This document shows positions 24,876 to 35,369 of a DNA stretch of 64,000 nucleotides, in pieces. Made by a program: the position numbers and the translations under genes. Where the stretch lies: contig JACQIB010000004.1 in the NCBI GenBank assembly GCA_016198755.1, positions 170,913-234,912 of the forward strand, written 5' to 3'. The DNA is from Candidatus Aenigmatarchaeota archaeon (GTDB lineage Archaea; Aenigmatarchaeota; Aenigmatarchaeia; Aenigmatarchaeales; JACQIB01). Every line of letters starts with the position of its first letter. Within the stretch, counting starts at the first letter, position 1. The notes under the pieces are model-generated. The model did not search any database. It saw only the letters and a program-made list of their open reading frames with translations, and had not been told where the DNA came from.

Positions 24876-25005
24876 TGGTGGACTCGGTGGGATTTTCTCC
24901 AAACCCTTTTGGGGTTTGCAAAGACCTTTTCGGAAAAGGGATTTGCTTTGAACCCACAACCTCTTGCTTGCAAAGCAAGCGATCTTCCAGTTGATCTACG
25001 AGCCC
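24876..25005 (-). tRNA. tRNA-Ala(TGC) with a roughly 54-nt intron in the T-loop (non-canonical position about 59/60); CCA encoded
   Basis: The minus strand reads GGGCTCG TA GATC AACTGGAA GATC G CTTGC TTTGCAA GCAAG AGGTT GTGGG TTCAAA[G-intron-T] CCCAC CGAGTCC A CCA. The exons assemble into a perfect 76-nt cloverleaf. Confidence 0.8.
24904..24953. repeat. 50-nt sequence identical to 52268-52317 (core of the T-loop intron shared by tRNA-Ala and tRNA-Leu)
   Basis: Exact match: cccttttggggtttgcaaagaccttttcggaaaagggatttgctttgaac. Confidence 0.9.
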
Positions 25006-28316: not shown

Positions 28317-29099
28317 CTATCTCATGTTCTTTCCCAAGAATTTGATACTGTTTATTTTTTTTCCATCCAGCTCAATCAGTGTATTAACATGCGAACCAAA
28401 TCCAGCATTCAGTGCAACCGCACCCTTTATTTTTATTTTTCCAAAGTGCTCATGTATATGCCCACCAACAGAGACCAACGGTTTGTTCCACTCTATAGCT
28501 TTTCTGACTAAAATTGAACCTGCATGTTTCCCATAAGCAGGTGAACGTTTATCCAGAACTTTGTCTAATTTTGTATTATACGGAACATTATGGGACAAAA
28601 AGATAACATGCCCCTTTGCTTTTTCAAACAGCCCCTTTAACTGGGAATAAGCTAAAACAAACTCTGCAGGCCCTTCAGGAGCTGTGGAAATTGCCCCTCC
28701 CCACACTGGATAACCTATAAGTGTATAGCCCATAAAAGTTTTTGATTCAAAACTAATATCCCTCAGATTTTTTAGTCCCTTTATCAGCTTTGAATATTCA
28801 TGGTCCCAGTTTCCCCGAACAATAAACACTGGCTTCCCAAGGGAATTCAGCTTCTTCAAAACTCTCCTCCCATCTGCAAAAGATTTTTTTATCAGCCCCT
28901 TTGCTTTTTTAACTCCAGTAATTTCAACCCAGCTTATTTCCCTTCCTTCCTTCAAACTTTTCCTATAGGAAATCCACTCATACTTTCTCATAGGATCCGA
29001 ACAAAAATCCCCCGGAGCTAACACAGCATCAAAATTCTTTACTCCAATTTTAGGAACCTGCCCATGCAAATCCCCTATCACTAAAAACCTGAATGCCAT
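28317..29099 (-). CDS. Calcineurin-like metallophosphoesterase
   Basis: GDLHG, GDF, GNWDH and GGHIHE motifs. Confidence 0.8.
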   Translation of the reverse strand: MAFRFLVIGDLHGQVPKIGVKNFDAVLAPGDFCSDPMRKYEWISYRKSLKEGREISWVEITGVKKAKGLIKKSFADGRRVLKKLNSLGKPVFIVRGNWDHEYSKLIKGLKNLRDISFESKTFMGYTLIGYPVWGGAISTAPEGPAEFVLAYSQLKGLFEKAKGHVIFLSHNVPYNTKLDKVLDKRSPAYGKHAGSILVRKAIEWNKPLVSVGGHIHEHFGKIKIKGAVALNAGFGSHVNTLIELDGKKINSIKFLGKNMR

Positions 29100-29148
29100 A
29101 CAAAAGATTAGCTATTTACCCATATTTAATAAACCACCTAACTTAATT

Positions 29149-29499
29149 ATGTGTATGAAAATTAGCATATTTCCTTTGGTAATTATCTTCCCCCTGATTG
29201 TTGCAGGCTGCACTTCCCAGAAACCAACAGAAACAACAACTAATACCCTAGTACAGCAGCTTTCAGAGCTCTGCATACAGGCCTGCAATAATGTTCTGGC
29301 TGCAGGCCAGCCTTTGGAAGAGGGGCCCTGTTTGTTGAATCCGATCCGTGAGGACAGAATATGGGTCTGCGATGTAGCACATAACCCACGGCAGCCCATA
29401 GACGATCTGCCTGAAAACCAGTGCTCTGCCTACATAAGCGGGGAAGCAAACCATTTTGTGGAAGTTACACCAGACTGTAAATTTATAAGAGCCAAGTAA
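29149..29499 (+). CDS. Small Cys-rich lipoprotein (lipobox IVAGC)
   Basis: Signal peptide plus lipobox; 8 Cys in the mature part. Confidence 0.45.
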   Translation: MCMKISIFPLVIIFPLIVAGCTSQKPTETTTNTLVQQLSELCIQACNNVLAAGQPLEEGPCLLNPIREDRIWVCDVAHNPRQPIDDLPENQCSAYISGEANHFVEVTPDCKFIRAK

Positions 29500-29912
29500 G
29501 TCGGTTGTTAGGAATTTTTGGAAATAGCTAAAGCTAAGCTGTAAAAATAGGTCGCGGCCGATGATATTAGCGCCCCGAATAAAAAATTTTGGAGGTGATC
29601 CAGCCCCACGTTCCCGTAGGGCTACCTTCTCATAGGAGTGCAGCCTGGCAAAATTATCCCTCTCAATTCACCTCAGTCCCCACTTGGGGCCCGCCTTTCT
29701 TTCTTTCATAGAGGAAAAATACAGACTACACTTCCTGTCTGTCAGTATTGCAGCTTTCACTGCAAAACATATGACTTAGCCTTTCTTGTAAGTCTCTGGC
29801 TCGACTCTTCCCATACCCATTGCTGGAAACGAAAAAAGCCTCGCCAAAGGCTCACTCAAATGGCTTGACAGGCGGTGTGTGCAAAGAACAGGGACGTATT
29901 CGGCGAACGAAT

Positions 29913-30701
29913 TCATGCTAGAAGCTTCGAAAAAGGTTTTATAATATTAATCAACTTATACACTGATTGATTAACAAGAACATCATTATATTCTTCCTTT
30001 ACAATATCTATAGCATCTTTTTGTATATTGCCTTCTAATATTGCTATCAATCTTACATAGGGATATTTTTGTCGAATTTTCATAGCTCTATAAGCAAGTT
30101 CTACGGCTTGCAAACGTTTCCTATAATTGAAATTCATTTGCTTTACCTCAATTATTATTTTGGGTATATTTTCAGAAGGCAAGGCAAAATCTACTACAAA
30201 ATTTCTATTGGTCCTCACTAGGGCATGAAACTTATGTGAAATGCCCAATTTCTGAAAGATTTCTATATATCTTTTTTCTTGTTCTGTAGGACCTTTTATT
30301 ATTGCACCTTTCAGAGATCTTTCTTTAGACGCCTTTAAACTCATTTTTCTTGCGCGTTCAGTATCTCTAAAAGTGCCGCGTTCGGAAATTTCATAATACC
30401 TGCGTATTAAGATTTCCCTAGAAGGAATTCTTTGCATGCATTTAATTTCTTCAAACACTTTGTTTATTACTTTTTCGTCTACACTTTTTCTAAATCCTTT
30501 CTCTATATTATAGACTGTGCCTTGACTCTTCCCTATAAACTTTGCTAATTGCCACTGACTCATATTCAATATTAAACGTAGAATCAGCAATCTCTGCGGT
30601 TTTGTATATATAATTTCAGGTTTCAGTTTCCTTAAACTGTCTGTTGTTCTATATACTTCATCACAGAGATTTTTTAATTTTAGCTTGTTTATGGTAATCA
30701 C
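29913..30701 (-). CDS. Intron-encoded putative homing endonuclease: N-terminal XRE-type HTH plus C-terminal PD-(D/E)XK nuclease-like domain (262 aa)
   Basis: HTH MSQWQLAKFIGKSQGTVYNIEKG; nuclease motif FVVDFALP...IIIEVKQ (D...E-x-K). Sits entirely inside the rRNA intron, with the stop overlapping the exon junction. Confidence 0.55.
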   Translation of the reverse strand: MITINKLKLKNLCDEVYRTTDSLRKLKPEIIYTKPQRLLILRLILNMSQWQLAKFIGKSQGTVYNIEKGFRKSVDEKVINKVFEEIKCMQRIPSREILIRRYYEISERGTFRDTERARKMSLKASKERSLKGAIIKGPTEQEKRYIEIFQKLGISHKFHALVRTNRNFVVDFALPSENIPKIIIEVKQMNFNYRKRLQAVELAYRAMKIRQKYPYVRLIAILEGNIQKDAIDIVKEEYNDVLVNQSVYKLINIIKPFSKLLA

Positions 30702-30757
30702 CGATATTATATTATATCGGTAACTACTATTTAACCCTTTACAGAGCTTCTAACTTT
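29916..30757 (-). mobile_element. 16S rRNA intron (about 840 nt) in the 3' domain, carrying an HTH + PD-(D/E)XK ORF
   Basis: Exon sequence ...GGCGAACGTCAT is interrupted and resumes ...GAATTCGTTCGCCGAATACGTCCCTG (the equivalent of E. coli position about 1360-1380). Confidence 0.7.
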
Positions 30758-31059
30758 ATGACGTTCGCCTACTATGAATTCCGGCTTCATGTGGGCGAGT
30801 TGCAGCCCACAATCTGGACTAAGATTGGGTTTAGGGGGTTAGCTTTGCCTTTCGGCATTGCATCCCATTGTCCCAACCATTGTAGGACGCGTGTAGCCCA
30901 GAGAATTCGGGCCGTACGGACCTACCGTCGCCCACTCCTTCCTCTGCTTTAGCAGCAGCGGTCCCGCCATTGTGCTCTCTCCCCGGAGGGAAAGGTGGCA
31001 AATGGCAGCGTGGGTCTCGCTCGTTAACGGACTTAACCGCACGCCTCAAGGTACGAGCT

Positions 31060-31219
31060 TTCTCGTCTTAGCAGCCCTCATACAAAACATTATCTTACTT
31101 TTCTCTATGTTTTACATAATTAGCATTCCACCAACGTCGTATCAGTATTAAGTTTGAATACTGGTTGCATATCGTTGTTGAAATTTTTCAATATCCCAAT
31201 TAAATTGAGACTGCCAAGA
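31060..31219 (-). other. Insertion of about 155 nt (ORF-less intron, likely BHB-type) in the 16S near the E. coli 1050-1070 region
   Basis: The conserved CATGGCCGTCGTCAGCTCGTACC is split: ...catggccatcgtca | 150 nt AT-rich | agctcgtaccttgagg. Flanking cttggcag/ctgctaag can pair to close the insert. Confidence 0.6.
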
Positions 31220-31763
31220 TGACGATGGCCATGCAACTCCTCTCAGCTTGTCTGGTAAACCCGTTAGGCTGACCCTCATTCTGCTGTCTTCTCTGGTAAG
31301 ATGTCCGGTGTTAAATCCAATTGAACCGCATCCTCCACTCATTGTGTGTTCCCCCGCCAATTCCTTTAAGTTTCAGCCTTGCGGCCGTACTCCCCAGGTG
31401 GCCCGCTTAACATCTACACTTCGGCACTGCATGTTCACGTAGAACGTGCAACACCAAGCGGGCATCGTTTACGGCTGGGACTACTGGGGTATCTAATCCC
31501 AATCGCTCCCCCAGCTGTCGCCCCTCACTGTCAGACTCGTTTTCGGTAGACGCCTTCGCCACAGGTGGTCCTCCACGGATTAAAGGATTTAACCCCTACA
31601 CGTGGAATACCTCTACCGTCTCCCGATCTCAAGGCTTGGAGTATCTCCAGCGCGCCTGACAGTTAGCTGCCAGATTTCACCAGAGACTTTCAAGCCCAGC
31701 TACGGGCGCTTTAGACCCAATAAACGCGATAGCCATTTGGACCGCGGGTATTACCGCGGCGGC

Positions 31764-31795
31764 GTGTGCGAACAAAGTCTACTGACTTTGAACAT
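31764..31795 (-). other. Hairpin insertion of about 30 nt inside the universal 515F/530-loop sequence of the 16S
   Basis: GTGCCA | tgttcaaagtc-agtag-gactttgttcgcaca | CGCCGCCGCGGTAATAC. The insert forms a 7-bp perfect stem, caaagtc/gactttg. Confidence 0.6.
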
Positions 31796-32249
31796 GGCAC
31801 CCGTCTTACCCAGTCCTTATTCGCCTAGGTTTTTAGCCTAAGCAAAAGCTCGTGCAAAGCACGAGCACTCGAGGTTCCCTTCTCACACGCTAATGCATTG
31901 GAAAGTTTTCGCTCCTGCTGCGACCCGTAGGCCCTGCGCTCATGTCTCAGAGCGCATCTGGAGGCTCACACTCTCATGTCCCCTACCCGTCACAGGCTTG
32001 TCAGTTTTATAAAGCAGGTAGCTTATGCTACCAAAAATTATTTTGGCAAACTAAGTTTGCCTATGCACTTTACACTGACAACAACCTGATAGGCCGCAGT
32101 CCCATTCTATGGCGCCGGAGCTTTCACTTTTGGTGCATTCCAGCATCCAAAAACTATGGGGCATTAGCCTCACTTTTGCGTTCACTTTCAAAAGAAAGTG
32201 GAATTCGCAAGATTATTCCCCACCATAGAGTAGGTTAACTACGTGTTAC

Positions 32250-32921
32250 TCAGCAGTGCGCCGAGGGCAAGAGCGGATTAAATAGAACCTTACCAGTCTT
32301 TTTACAATAAAAATAGTTTTTAAATTCCTTAGAAAGACATCTTACTTTTTCTAACTTTAGTGGATGTTTAAATTTTATTATTCTACAAAACTTTCTAAAA
32401 TTTTTAGCACCTTTTATTCGCCACCAATATACATCGTTTTTTCCATAAACTTTTGATACATGAATACCATATGTTTCTAATAATTCTTTACTCCATATGC
32501 AAAAATCCTTAGATTTAATTTGTAGTTCTATTACAGGATATTCATATATAGACATCATGGTCTTTCTCTTATACCTTTGGACTTCTTTGAATACGGAACA
32601 ATCACCATCAAAAAATCCTATAAGAAAATTCATCTTTTCTTTTCTATTTATGTGCACTGGTGGAGTGATGTCATGAGACTTTTTCCCTGGTTTTATATGA
32701 TAAAGTCTCTTAAATTTTTCGTATAGCTTACGATCACTTACCCTTATCTGAAATACTCTTTTTCTTAATTTGTAAGTAACCTTGTTTTTTGCAAATTTTT
32801 GAAGATTTTTTACTATATCATCTCTGAAGCGCTTGTTATTTGTGTAGACATAGACATACGGTCTATATTTTTCTAAATGACCATCTGCAGCTATTAAACC
32901 GGCCATATAAGAAAATTTCAT
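32250..32921 (-). CDS. LAGLIDADG-family homing endonuclease (double-motif, intron-encoded)
   Basis: Two LAGLIDADG motifs are present: MAGLIAADGHL and LIGFFDGDCSV. Confidence 0.85.
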   Translation of the reverse strand: MKFSYMAGLIAADGHLEKYRPYVYVYTNNKRFRDDIVKNLQKFAKNKVTYKLRKRVFQIRVSDRKLYEKFKRLYHIKPGKKSHDITPPVHINRKEKMNFLIGFFDGDCSVFKEVQRYKRKTMMSIYEYPVIELQIKSKDFCIWSKELLETYGIHVSKVYGKNDVYWWRIKGAKNFRKFCRIIKFKHPLKLEKVRCLSKEFKNYFYCKKTGKVLFNPLLPSAHC

Positions 32922-32992
32922 ATATTATTCTATGACGATATACAACTTATAGATTTCTATGTTTCGTTAGTAGTGTTCTACTTAATCCTTTA
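32277..32992 (-). mobile_element. 16S rRNA intron (about 715 nt) near the 5' end (after ...CATGCGAGCCGAGAGGGG), carrying a LAGLIDADG endonuclease ORF
   Basis: Exon resumes ...CCGCTCTTGCCCTCGGCGCACTGCTGAGTAACACGT. The ORF reads through the 3' junction to a TGA stop inside the exon. Confidence 0.75.
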
Positions 32993-33474
32993 CCCCTCTC
33001 GGCTCGCATGGATAAATCGAACCCCGATAACGGCTATCTCCGGCAGGATCAACCGGAATTAAATTAGGGGGGATTTCACAAACCTAATGGTTTGCGTTCC
33101 CTGTTTTCTTACTCGGAGTTTCGCTAACATCAGCCACGACTTCTAATCATGAACTCATCCGCACCCGCGCGCGCTTCCAAATTTCCCTCGCACTGGTCCG
33201 CTCATTGCTGCGTAAGCAGCTCGTTTGTATTTTTTCCCACAGGTTGGAACTGGGATGCTCATAGCGAGTTTACACTCTTGCTTGCAGCCCACACAGAAAG
33301 AGATGGAACAGCAGCGCCGTACCATTCATTTTGCCTGTGAGTACAGACTATAATAGCGTTATCGAAGGCTTTTAAAGGTTACTGCGGATGCCGTTGGCTG
33401 GGGTTTAAAAGGTTTTCTTACGACCACTTTCTTATGGCAACCTCAAAACCACAGCCACAATACATGTTTTTGCC

Positions 33475-33936
33475 CTAAAACCTGACAGCACCCTCCAAAA
33501 CTTTCAGCAAATTCACAGAGCGCATTTTGATTGTTTTTGTATGTAAACCTGGATTGAAAAAAACAAACTCGTTTTCCAGAACAGCATTGCTCAAATACGT
33601 TTTTAATTCCGTTTTCAAGCCAAAAGGCCCCACAGCCCCTATCTCCACTCCAGCTATCCTTTCAACTTCCTGCGGGTTTGCAAGCCCAATATTTTTGCAG
33701 TTTTCTAACAGGCACAGTATTTTGGTGTCTGCCCTGCTGTCTCCTGGAACTAAAACCAGAATAAACTTTCCAGCATCTGTTTTAAAAATTAAAGACTTAA
33801 CACCAGCGCGCGCAGATGGCAGGCCGCGCACACGAGATGCATCTTCTGATGTATAAACATGCTCATGCTCTGTCTCTTCGAATGGGATTTCTTTCTCTTT
33901 CAAAAGCTGTACTATTTTGTTGTATACAAAGAACAT
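33475..33936 (-). CDS. YbaK/ProX-type aminoacyl-tRNA deacylase
   Basis: 153 aa; YbaK-like pattern (GxxxKSLIFKTD...VLVLVPGDSR...). Confidence 0.75.
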   Translation of the reverse strand: MFFVYNKIVQLLKEKEIPFEETEHEHVYTSEDASRVRGLPSARAGVKSLIFKTDAGKFILVLVPGDSRADTKILCLLENCKNIGLANPQEVERIAGVEIGAVGPFGLKTELKTYLSNAVLENEFVFFNPGLHTKTIKMRSVNLLKVLEGAVRF

Positions 33937-34057
33937 TTTTAGAAGTATGCTGGGCAGGTATAAAAGCTTGGTGGGCTAAATTTTTAGCTGTATGATATAC
34001 AAGTGTAGGTATAACAGAAAAGTAAGCTTTATATACTACTTAATAGTAATAATTAAT

Positions 34058-34459
34058 ATGTCTGGAGATACATCTAATAGTCCTGAAAATGCTAGGAATA
34101 GATTTATAGTTGCACGTCATGTTCAGGGAGGAATAAGATCGCCTGTTCTACATGGTGATAGCGCATTCTATAAAGAAGATGCTATGAGAAGGGCTGAAGA
34201 GCTTAATCATGGAACCTGGCCTTTGGGAGATTCCGGCTGGGGAGTTTATAGTGTGAGGGAGGCTGGAAACAGAATTGCTGATTCTGTCAGAACTTTTTTA
34301 GGAGGCGGAAGCTATGCTATCGGAAATCCAACAGCATATGGAGGATTCTATTTACATAAAAAAGATGGTGCAGTACCTGTTTTTGGATGGAGATCACAGG
34401 TTGAAAAGGCTGCAGCCAGATCAGATCTTAGGGTACTTGTATTGACACCTGTTTTCTGA
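34058..34459 (+). CDS. Hypothetical protein (about 133 aa from ATG 34058); paralog of 15027-15434
   Basis: Shared motif block with 15027-15434. The upstream part of the tracked ORF (33992-) is AT-rich junk and probably not coding. Confidence 0.35.
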   Translation: MSGDTSNSPENARNRFIVARHVQGGIRSPVLHGDSAFYKEDAMRRAEELNHGTWPLGDSGWGVYSVREAGNRIADSVRTFLGGGSYAIGNPTAYGGFYLHKKDGAVPVFGWRSQVEKAAARSDLRVLVLTPVF

Positions 34460-34493
34460 TAGTAAGCAGTTTAAATATTTAGCTGTAAAATAC

Positions 34494-35369
34494 TTGTTTA
34501 GTGGACTTATGTTAAGCGAAACAGTCTGGAACAGTAACCTGAAAGAACTGAAAATAGACTATCTATACCATTTGGGGCTAGATAATACAGAAGATTTAAA
34601 AGGCACTTTCAAAGATACTAGATTTGTATGCATGTTCGGGAGCGCTCTAAGAGCTGAAATGTTTGCAAAAAAAGCAGGAAAACAACTTGGCTTTACTGTT
34701 GAGGGACCAATAGGAAAAACTGAGAGATTTTCACTTTACAAAATAGGGCCAGTTATTTCTGTTTCACATGGTATGGGCATGCCTTCTCTCCTGATTTTGC
34801 TTCATGAGATAACAAAATTGCTACAGTATGCTGAAGCCATAGATGTAGCCTATATAAGAATTGGAACCTGCGGGGGTGTTGGTATTGAACCGGGAACTGT
34901 TGTTATAACAACTGAAGCTGTGAATGAAAAATTGGAAGCTGTTTTTGAGCATATGGAACTGGGAAAAGTTCGCAGATATATAACAAAACTTGATAATAAG
35001 CTGGCTGAAAGTATTTTGAAGAGCGCAGGCGATATTAAGGCTGTGCTTGGAAAAACAATGGGCACTGATGATTTTTATGAGGGTCAGGGAAGGCTGGATG
35101 GAGCTTTACAACCTCGATATAAAGCAGAGGAGAAAATGGAATATCTGAAAAAAGCTGCTGAGATTGGGGTTTTGAATATAGAGATGGAAGCAACAGCTTT
35201 TGCTACCTTTTGCTCCAGAGCAGATATAACTGGAGCTATAGTGGATGCCGCATTGTTAGACAGGCTGAAAGTGGATCAGATTTATGTTGGGAAAGAAGAA
35301 CTGGCTGGATTTTCTGAAAAGGCACAGCAAGTTGTTCTGAACTATATAAAAAGCAAAATAAACGGCTGA
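34494..35369 (+). CDS. Nucleoside phosphorylase of the PNP/UDP family (uridine phosphorylase-like)
   Basis: About 290 aa; core GSALRAE...VISVSHGMGMPS...RIGTCGG...EMEA, typical of PNP_UDP_1. Confidence 0.7.
   Translation: MFSGLMLSETVWNSNLKELKIDYLYHLGLDNTEDLKGTFKDTRFVCMFGSALRAEMFAKKAGKQLGFTVEGPIGKTERFSLYKIGPVISVSHGMGMPSLLILLHEITKLLQYAEAIDVAYIRIGTCGGVGIEPGTVVITTEAVNEKLEAVFEHMELGKVRRYITKLDNKLAESILKSAGDIKAVLGKTMGTDDFYEGQGRLDGALQPRYKAEEKMEYLKKAAEIGVLNIEMEATAFATFCSRADITGAIVDAALLDRLKVDQIYVGKEELAGFSEKAQQVVLNYIKSKING

Follow-up and report, generated by a model that had tools for sequence, protein, structure and literature searches.

A putative helix-turn-helix PD-(D/E)XK homing endonuclease encoded in a bulge-helix-bulge intron of an archaeal 16S rRNA gene

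The interrupted 16S rRNA gene

We investigated an insertion in the 16S rRNA gene of a Candidatus Aenigmatarchaeota archaeon and the protein that it encodes. The DNA analysed is a stretch of 64,000 nucleotides (nt) of contig JACQIB010000004.1 (hereafter the window). All coordinates are positions in this window, and the gene, the insertion and its open reading frame (ORF) all lie on the minus strand. A first-pass annotation had suggested that the ORF encodes a homing endonuclease outside the LAGLIDADG family, combining an XRE-type helix-turn-helix (HTH) with a PD-(D/E)XK nuclease motif. The ORF is present as described there, with a GTG start and 262 amino acids (aa), and its translation contains both quoted motifs, i.e. 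MSQWQLAKFIGKSQGTVYNIEKG at aa 47-69 and FVVDFALP...IIIEVKQ at aa 168-188.

The 5' end of the 16S rRNA gene, AUUCCGGUUGAUCCUGCCGGA, starts at position 33059, as found by pattern matching and by reading of the sequence. In a piecewise Rfam scan, the alignment with the archaeal 16S model RF01959 ended at approximately model position 1320 (window position 30747), and was picked up again from about 29910 downward with CGUUCGCCGAAUACGUCCCUG...CACACACCGCC, where the resumption begins with CGUUCGCCGAAUACGUCCCUGUUCUUUGCACACACCGCC. The conserved 16S stretch is interrupted by an insertion, and the entire ORF with its stop codon lies in it. This location had been proposed earlier and stands; the proposed insertion length of 840 nt does not, since the cleavage rule for bulge-helix-bulge (BHB) introns yields 845 nt (30755-29911). 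The ORF occupies 789 of these 845 nt. The G+C content is 29-34% in the intron and 45-56% in the exons. The intron is inserted in the loop of helix 43, between positions 1310 and 1311 of the RF01959 model. By our own count from the landmarks C1400 and A1408, we take this site to correspond approximately to positions 1363/1364 of E. coli.

Junction structure and predicted splicing product

The RNA reads GGCGAACG-UCAU-AAA-GUUAGAAGCU... at the 5' junction and ...AGCUUCUAGC-AUGA-AUU-CGUUCGCC at the 3' junction. The minimum-free-energy structure predicted by RNAfold is an exact helix-bulge-helix-bulge-helix (hBHBh') motif, in the window as well as in the homologous locus L001. We counted base pairs at the 15 paired positions of this motif in four distinct junction sequences (the window, L001, L002 and L003/L004). 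All 60 pair cells contained standard pairs, whereas pairing dropped to 21-47% in a control in which the 3' partners were slid by one to three columns. Compensatory, two-sided changes occurred in 7 of the 15 pairs. The central helix covaries in the relatives (UCAA/UUGA, UCAC/GUGA), and compensatory changes in the inner helix were seen in L001 and in L002/L003. The stop codon of the ORF, UGA, sits in the central helix of the motif, likewise in L001-L003.

The archaeal splicing endonuclease cuts after the second nucleotide of each bulge. Cleavage by this rule would give the ligated product GGCGAACGUCAUAA|UCGUUCGCC, with the splice junction GUCAUAA|UCGUUCGCC and a predicted loop UCAUAAU that is compatible with the RF01959 consensus UCAacAu. 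We scanned a metagenome collection for intron-less alleles, a search that the first-pass annotation had proposed for defining the homing site. The degenerate ligated pattern matched 37 intron-less 16S loci, and the exact ligated sequence of 33 nt, GGCGAACGTCATAATCGTTCGCCGAATACGTCC, was present in four of them (L017, L034, L044 and L046). Hence, UCAUAAU is a natural helix-43 sequence.

A group I or group II intron was rejected as an alternative. An Rfam scan of 28800-34500 (E ≤ 0.01) returned small-subunit rRNA only and no match to either ribozyme.

The exact hBHBh' fold, its covariation in four sequences, the occurrence of the ligated exon in nature and the lack of a ribozyme match together identify the insertion as a canonical BHB intron, the archaeal type to which it had been assigned at first pass. 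The features of the locus are listed in Table 1.

Table 1. Coordinates of the 16S rRNA gene, its helix-43 intron and the intron-encoded protein in the window.
Feature	Position	Strand	Evidence or remark
Archaeal 16S rRNA gene, including introns	29737..33059	-	Rfam RF01959, 1035 bits; 3' end approximate
BHB intron (845 nt) of the 16S helix-43 loop	29911..30755	-	Junction reading, RNAfold, pair counts
Exon 1, 5' strand of helix 43 GGCGAACG, outer BHB helix	30762..30769	-	Alignment, RNAfold, pair counts
BHB central helix of 4 bp, exon strand UCAU	30758..30761	-	Pairs with AUGA 29913-29916
5' bulge of 3 nt, AAA	30755..30757	-	RNAfold; predicted EndA cut between 30756 and 30755
BHB inner helix, 5' arm GUUAGAAGCU	30745..30754	-	Pairs with 29917-29926; 10 bp
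BHB inner helix, 3' arm AGCUUCUAGC	29917..29926	-	Within the 3' end of the ORF
BHB central helix, intron strand AUGA	29913..29916	-	Includes the ORF stop codon UGA
3' bulge of 3 nt, AUU	29910..29912	-	RNAfold; predicted cut between 29911 and 29910
Exon 2, 3' strand of helix 43 CGUUCGCC	29902..29909	-	Alignment, RNAfold
Intron ORF, 262 aa, candidate homing endonuclease	29913..30701	-	ORF list; homologues
HTH_3 (XRE-type) helix-turn-helix, aa 41-82	30456..30581	-	Pfam PF01381
PD-(D/E)XK-type nuclease domain, aa 136-262	29916..30296	-	Structure model, profile and residue conservation
Catalytic candidates	E142 30278-30276; D171 30191-30189; E185 30149-30147; K187 30143-30141	-	Family alignment
TATA-like box TTAAATA	30728..30734	-	Centre 30 nt upstream of the start codon
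Conserved hairpin / inverted repeat of 16 bp	30691..30730	-	3' arm includes the GTG start 30701-30699

Domain structure of the encoded protein

The N-terminal XRE-type HTH that had been read from the motif was recovered as Pfam HTH_3 (PF01381), with an E-value of 1.7e-5 and a score of 25.2 bits, which exceeds the gathering score of 23. Among 45 scanned family members, 26 have HTH_3 in front of the nuclease domain. The C-terminal region of about 130 aa had no direct Pfam match, and searches of Pfam, NCBIfam and PHROGs gave HTH families only. Furthermore, searches against PDB sequences with the single protein and with a five-sequence profile yielded nothing useful for this domain. At E ≤ 1, Pfam detected no LAGLIDADG motif or domain in the 262-aa ORF. 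Pfam DUF559 did not match the ORF either, and the protein does not show the active-site patterns ExDG..H or EDxHD.

The structure of the nuclease domain was modelled by AlphaFold on an alignment of 43 sequences. The model was very confident (pLDDT 93.1, pTM 0.87) and shows a helix, three strands, a helix and a strand, followed by helix-strand-helix, i.e. an alpha-beta-beta-beta-alpha-beta core. It places D171 on strand 2 and E185-x-K187 on strand 3. The top PDB matches in Foldseek were all nucleases (AF1548, Can2, BbvCI, NucS/EndoMS and R.BspD6I), and the structural matches also included Bax1, BsoBI, BstEII, NgoMIV, Cfr10I, Ecl18kI and a DUF559 protein. Structure prediction, which the first-pass annotation had named as the means to check its nuclease call, produced a restriction-endonuclease-like fold.

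Sequence profiles gave a similar picture. When the 43-sequence profile was compared with PDB sequences, T7 endonuclease I ranked first with a marginal E-value of 0.024. In this alignment, the E, D and ExK of the family fall on the segment LE...PDF...VETK, which we take to be the catalytic tetrad of T7 endonuclease I. The family profile also matches a triple-DUF559 protein, with an hhalign probability of 88.7% over the T-x-x-E / VDF / IEV region. In an alignment of 126 family domains, E142 occurs in every one of the 120 domains without a gap there; D171 is kept in 122 of 125 and E185 in 121 of 125. The position of K187 is occupied by lysine throughout the clade of the window protein itself.

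The ORF is under purifying selection. The ratio of nonsynonymous to synonymous substitution rates (dN/dS) between the L002 and L003 copies was 0.195 overall; the nuclease domain (0.13) had a lower value than the N-terminal part (0.30). This overall ratio, the low G+C content of the intron, which predicts frequent stop codons, and homologues with 36-55% identity imply that the ORF did not arise by chance. From the model and the conserved E...D...ExK residues, we conclude that the C-terminal domain is a predicted PD-(D/E)XK nuclease with an apparently intact metal-binding site, in line with the earlier motif-based call, and that it would be related to, but outside, the DUF559/Vsr group.

Upstream of the start codon, the TATA-like box is kept as T(T/A)AAAT(A/G) at equal distance in L001, L002 and L003, and a similar TTTATAT is found in L053. 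TTAAATA may be an internal archaeal promoter for a leaderless mRNA. RNAalifold recovered 16 consensus pairs in the leader hairpin, four of which have compensatory changes. The arms stay paired through G-U wobbles in two lineages, which favours an RNA hairpin over a pure DNA operator. In the precursor RNA or the intron RNA, the hairpin may mask the start codon; alternatively, the inverted repeat could be an operator for the HTH domain.

Relatives and their insertion sites

A word-indexed protein search found only five close relatives. Among these five is an identical protein from a metagenome-assembled genome (MAG) of Candidatus Aenigmarchaeota, under the NCBI name 'helix-turn-helix domain-containing protein'. 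When a profile of the C-terminal domain was used in an exhaustive HMMER search, 106 cluster representatives were recovered at E ≤ 1e-3. Most family members are 200-290 aa long and have the nuclease domain at the C-terminus.

The genomic context is known for 15 distinct family proteins, of which 13 are encoded in archaeal 16S introns, eight in helix 43 and five in the 5' domain. Hence, the family is not an ordinary regulator commonly found outside introns, which the first-pass annotation had regarded as grounds for abandoning its proposal. The helix-43 site is occupied in the window and in L001-L004, L048-L050 and L053/L054. In L001-L004, which are all the close homologues with readable DNA, the intron is again in the helix-43 loop, and the archaeal 16S genes concerned are diverged. 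Introns at this site also encode relatives with 41-43% identity in GTDB genomes, namely two MAGs of Micrarchaeota and one of Nanoarchaeota; each of these introns has a canonical BHB, with UCAC/GUGA or UCAU/GUGA as central helix. A third clade (P0121; L053/L054) is again found in the helix-43 loop, with a BHB, in a normal 16S-tRNA-23S operon.

The 5'-domain site is occupied in L005-L010, L051 and L052. Five proteins (P0112, P0113, P0114, P0116 and P0117), which are 21-28% identical to the window protein, are encoded there in a 16S intron directly after GUAGUUAA. At this site, a central helix AGUU/GGCU with an AAC bulge fits the sequence, and the 3' junction derived from intron-less relatives lies 2 nt downstream of the canonical 3-nt-bulge prediction. 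This offset reflects either a relaxed BHB or hosts with a mature sequence that is 2 nt longer. In L005 and L006, the family introns of the 5' domain adjoin introns bearing LAGLIDADG genes. The protein lineages thus follow the insertion sites in several phyla, which is the pattern expected of homing endonucleases.

Six relatives of 350-510 aa (P0019, P0020, P0025, P0027, P0028 and P0029) have two copies of the nuclease domain in tandem. Both copies keep the E, D and E residues in five of the six, while the helix-1 glutamate of the first copy of P0029 lies outside the alignment. These relatives are possibly monomeric pseudo-dimers. They would parallel the route from homodimer to pseudodimeric monomer that is known in LAGLIDADG enzymes (PMC3239194).

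Two further observations concern individual helix-43 relatives. In the Nanoarchaeota copy (L050, 2477-3178), the ORF stops early at 233 aa, after a poly-A run, and the C-terminal motif continues in another frame, which points to either a decaying gene or an assembly error; the leader hairpin of this intron is near-identical to that of the window. In L002 (973-1318), the 16S is broken again right after CUUGCACACACC, at about position 1400, by unrelated sequence that extends to the end of the contig. This second interruption is probably another intron near the known 1391 locus.

Comparison with known systems

Six families of homing endonucleases are recognised, with LAGLIDADG as the archaeal one (PMC3943268). 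In that review, the PD-(D/E)xK family is represented by the cyanobacterial I-Ssp6803I and the EDxHD family by the phage enzyme I-Bth0305I. A survey of archaeal 16S introns distinguished 13 loci, from 374 to 1391, and counted homing endonuclease ORFs by LAGLIDADG motifs alone (PMC4496867). Archaeal group I introns likewise carry LAGLIDADG genes only (PMC6125680). Hence, the first-pass statement that archaeal intron endonucleases are all LAGLIDADG enzymes agrees with the literature that we searched (PMC4496867, PMC6125680, PMC3943268). In this literature we found no rRNA introns of DPANN archaea with endonucleases other than LAGLIDADG, and the supplement of a paper on rRNA insertions in the candidate phyla radiation (CPR) contained no occurrences of HTH, DUF559 or PDDEXK ORFs. 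Neither the helix-43 site nor the 5'-domain site after GUAGUUAA is among the 13 loci of PMC4496867 or in the other literature searched.

The window intron resembles the LAGLIDADG introns in 16S genes of Thermoproteales (PMC4496867), which also have a BHB in a conserved rRNA element, one ORF that nearly fills the intron, and related ORFs at one site in diverged hosts. The 16S gene of the window itself also has a LAGLIDADG intron of that type (ORF 32250-32921). In contrast to these introns, the enzyme studied here has HTH and PD-(D/E)XK modules instead of a LAGLIDADG motif or fold, the family sites lie near what we take to be E. coli position 1363 and after GUAGUUAA, and the hosts are DPANN-type archaea. 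What is new is the architecture of the enzyme and the insertion sites, whereas the type of mobile intron is known.

Among other intron enzymes, I-Ssp6803I is likewise intron-encoded (in a cyanobacterial tRNA group I intron) and has a PD-(D/E)XK core; compact enzymes of this kind are described as multimerising on palindromic targets (PMC3943268). I-Ssp6803I is not among the top structural matches listed for the window protein, which by itself says little about the similarity of the two. I-Bth0305I, the EDxHD prototype (PMC3239194; PDB 3r3p), would share with the proposed mode of the window protein that it acts as a homodimer on a pseudopalindrome beside the insertion site. It differs in its location, a phage group I intron in recA, and in its active site, which is of the E-D-x-H-D/Vsr type rather than E...D...E-x-K. 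T7 endonuclease I and DUF559/Vsr-like proteins share with the window protein the layout E (helix 1)...(P)DF (strand 2)...(I/V)E-x-K/D (strand 3). However, T7 endonuclease I is a junction-resolving enzyme, DUF559 uses ExDG...H, none of these nucleases is encoded in an intron or joined to HTH_3, and the matches are marginal. The type II enzymes PspGI, NgoMIV, Cfr10I and Ecl18kI have 11-16% sequence identity to the window protein. Unlike type II restriction endonucleases, the window gene has no partner methyltransferase and sits in an rRNA intron.

Interpretation

The ORF lies inside an intron of a conserved gene, related genes recur at one site in diverged hosts, and different lineages are found at different sites. 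These are features of homing endonucleases. Together with the BHB junctions, the predicted fold and the conserved residues, this distribution supports the first-pass proposal of an archaeal 16S intron with a non-LAGLIDADG candidate homing endonuclease. We consider it likely that the window protein is an HTH-PD-(D/E)XK homing endonuclease of a mobile BHB intron in the helix-43 loop, with DNA cleavage as its presumed activity.

The proposed mechanism would start from the junctions of the pre-16S rRNA, which, as structure prediction and covariation show, fold into a helix, a 3-nt bulge, a 4-bp helix, a 3-nt bulge and a helix. On the strength of this motif, the host EndA would cut both bulges and RtcB would join the exons, so that the loop UCAUAAU is restored. 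Translation of the ORF may use the excised intron as template, or a leaderless mRNA transcribed from the TATA-like box; in the precursor RNA or the intron RNA, the conserved hairpin may keep the start codon hidden. The protein is probably a homodimer whose HTH domains would read the rDNA, and its metal site of E142, D171, E185 and K187 would make a double-strand cut in the intron-less sequence GGCGAACGTCATAA^TCGTTCGCC or close to it. By analogy with all known homing endonucleases, recombinational repair from an intron-containing copy would then put the intron into the cut allele. The intron-less site is GGCGAACGTCATAATCGTTCGCCGAATACG. Because this sequence encodes a hairpin, the target is an inverted repeat of 8 bp with a spacer of 7 bp (GGCGAACG-N7-CGTTCGCC), which would suit a homodimeric HTH-nuclease.

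Several points weigh against a homing endonuclease. We infer cleavage, splicing and mobility alike. The closest intron-less alleles have flanking 16S sequences that are just 82-92% identical to those of the intron-bearing genes, and the metagenome scan did not find an intron-less allele, or a presence-absence polymorphism, within the same species. The K187 position is lysine in 54 of the 126 family domains and threonine in 39. DPANN genomes usually have one rRNA operon, so homing would need DNA exchange between cells. Finally, two distant members of the family are free-standing. One of them (P0119) lies among translation genes; the other (P0036; 280 aa, with IIEATA in place of IIEVKQ) lies outside rRNA genes in L055 (3638-4843) and L056 (2149-3354), at 88 nt from an archaeal signal recognition particle (SRP) RNA gene on the opposite strand.

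Other explanations fit parts of these data. One is that the protein is a selfish or defensive passenger that shelters in the intron without targeting 16S, i.e. a restriction- or toxin-like nuclease with an autoregulatory HTH. Controller proteins of restriction-modification systems have the HTH_3 fold, type II restriction enzymes are among the top structural matches, the two free-standing relatives would fit, and the conserved inverted repeat has the position expected of an autorepressor site, downstream of the TATA-like box and before the start codon. Yet we consider such a passenger unlikely, given that the ORF fills the intron, which leaves neither a methyltransferase nor an antitoxin partner in it (no scan of the PADLOC defence library was made), and that the protein lineages track the insertion sites across several phyla, a signature of site-specific homing. 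A role in RNA metabolism, as a maturase or chaperone for BHB folding or as an RNA nuclease acting in a real and spliced intron, is rather improbable too. BHB splicing requires just the short motif and the host EndA, XRE-type HTH domains read double-stranded DNA, the closest structural matches are DNA endonucleases, and the acidic metal-binding triad is nearly invariant. These arguments stand against the overlap of the ORF with the BHB helices and the leader hairpin, the occurrence of intron-encoded endonucleases that double as maturases (PMC11270868), and the relationship of EndA to the PD-(D/E)XK fold (PMC3424549).

The remaining two explanations would take away the enzyme or the intron. If the protein were an ordinary XRE-family regulator with a decayed nuclease-like domain, or a dead homing gene kept by chance or for regulation, its NCBI name, the direct Pfam matches to HTH families only and the C-terminally truncated L050 copy would be readily understood. 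However, purifying selection is stronger on the nuclease domain than on the N-terminal part, the catalytic E/D/E is near-invariant over 126 domains and the domain model is very confident, which makes decay very unlikely. We regard it as equally far-fetched that the 845 nt are an rRNA expansion segment or an intervening sequence, either kept in the mature 16S rRNA or excised without ligation. The same 16S does have other short insertions (30, 62 and 39 nt), but a canonical hBHBh' junction with covariation, a predicted ligation product that gives the consensus loop of 7 nt and exists in intron-less relatives, and an ORF under selection that fills the insert all argue for an intron.

Beyond the single locus, we lean slightly towards a wider reading of the homing endonuclease hypothesis, in which the window protein would be the founding example of a further homing lineage with HTH_3 and PD-(D/E)XK modules, specific to BHB introns of archaeal, mostly DPANN, 16S genes. 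Its homodimers would exploit the inverted repeats of rRNA hairpins, the tandem-domain relatives would be monomeric derivatives, and the internal promoter and start-codon hairpin would uncouple expression from rRNA transcription.

If this wider reading is true, nuclease folds of at least two unrelated kinds have been recruited by archaeal BHB introns, and DPANN rRNA genes are a reservoir of unexplored compact sequence-specific nucleases. A second, unrelated architecture in these protein-spliced introns would show that selfish nucleases of different kinds had colonised them more than once, as happened in group I introns, which bears on the spread of BHB introns. Two sites would be added to the known 16S intron sites, one of them just upstream of the widely used 1390-1400 primer region; such extra sites matter for 16S surveys and for the assembly of DPANN genomes. 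Moreover, the family would supply roughly 100 small and diverse nucleases of two modules, whose natural targets are long. The palindromic, hairpin-encoding target and the tandem-domain relatives provide specific testable predictions.

Other features of the 16S gene and the window

A second ORF-bearing insertion interrupts the same 16S gene at about 32290-32990 on the minus strand, in the helix 6 region of the 5' domain. It is closed by a terminal helix of 14 bp, GGAUUAAGUAGAAC/GUUCUAUUUAAUCC, and its ORF, also on the minus strand, encodes a LAGLIDADG_3 protein of 223 aa (Pfam E-value 1.8e-14). Rfam alignment with the archaeal model placed the three short insertions (30, 62 and 39 nt) at 31100-32250 on the minus strand; they may represent either mini-introns or expansion segments. 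The 16S gene has an atypical 3' end: at 29737-29800 (minus strand), the region of helix 45 reads UGCAGUGAAAGCUGCA, and the alignment did not include the canonical tail GGAUCACCUCC. An Rfam scan found no 23S rRNA gene in the window.

A partial tRNA match was detected at 24936-25005 on the minus strand (Rfam, 30.9 bits, model positions 8-63), where ARAGORN finds no tRNA. No matching 3' acceptor strand was found anywhere in the window. As far as the T-loop, the sequence resembles the 5' portion of tRNA-Ala(UGC), and beyond it comes a stretch that resembles a hairpin. The locus may represent a split tRNA or a tRNA with an unusual intron.

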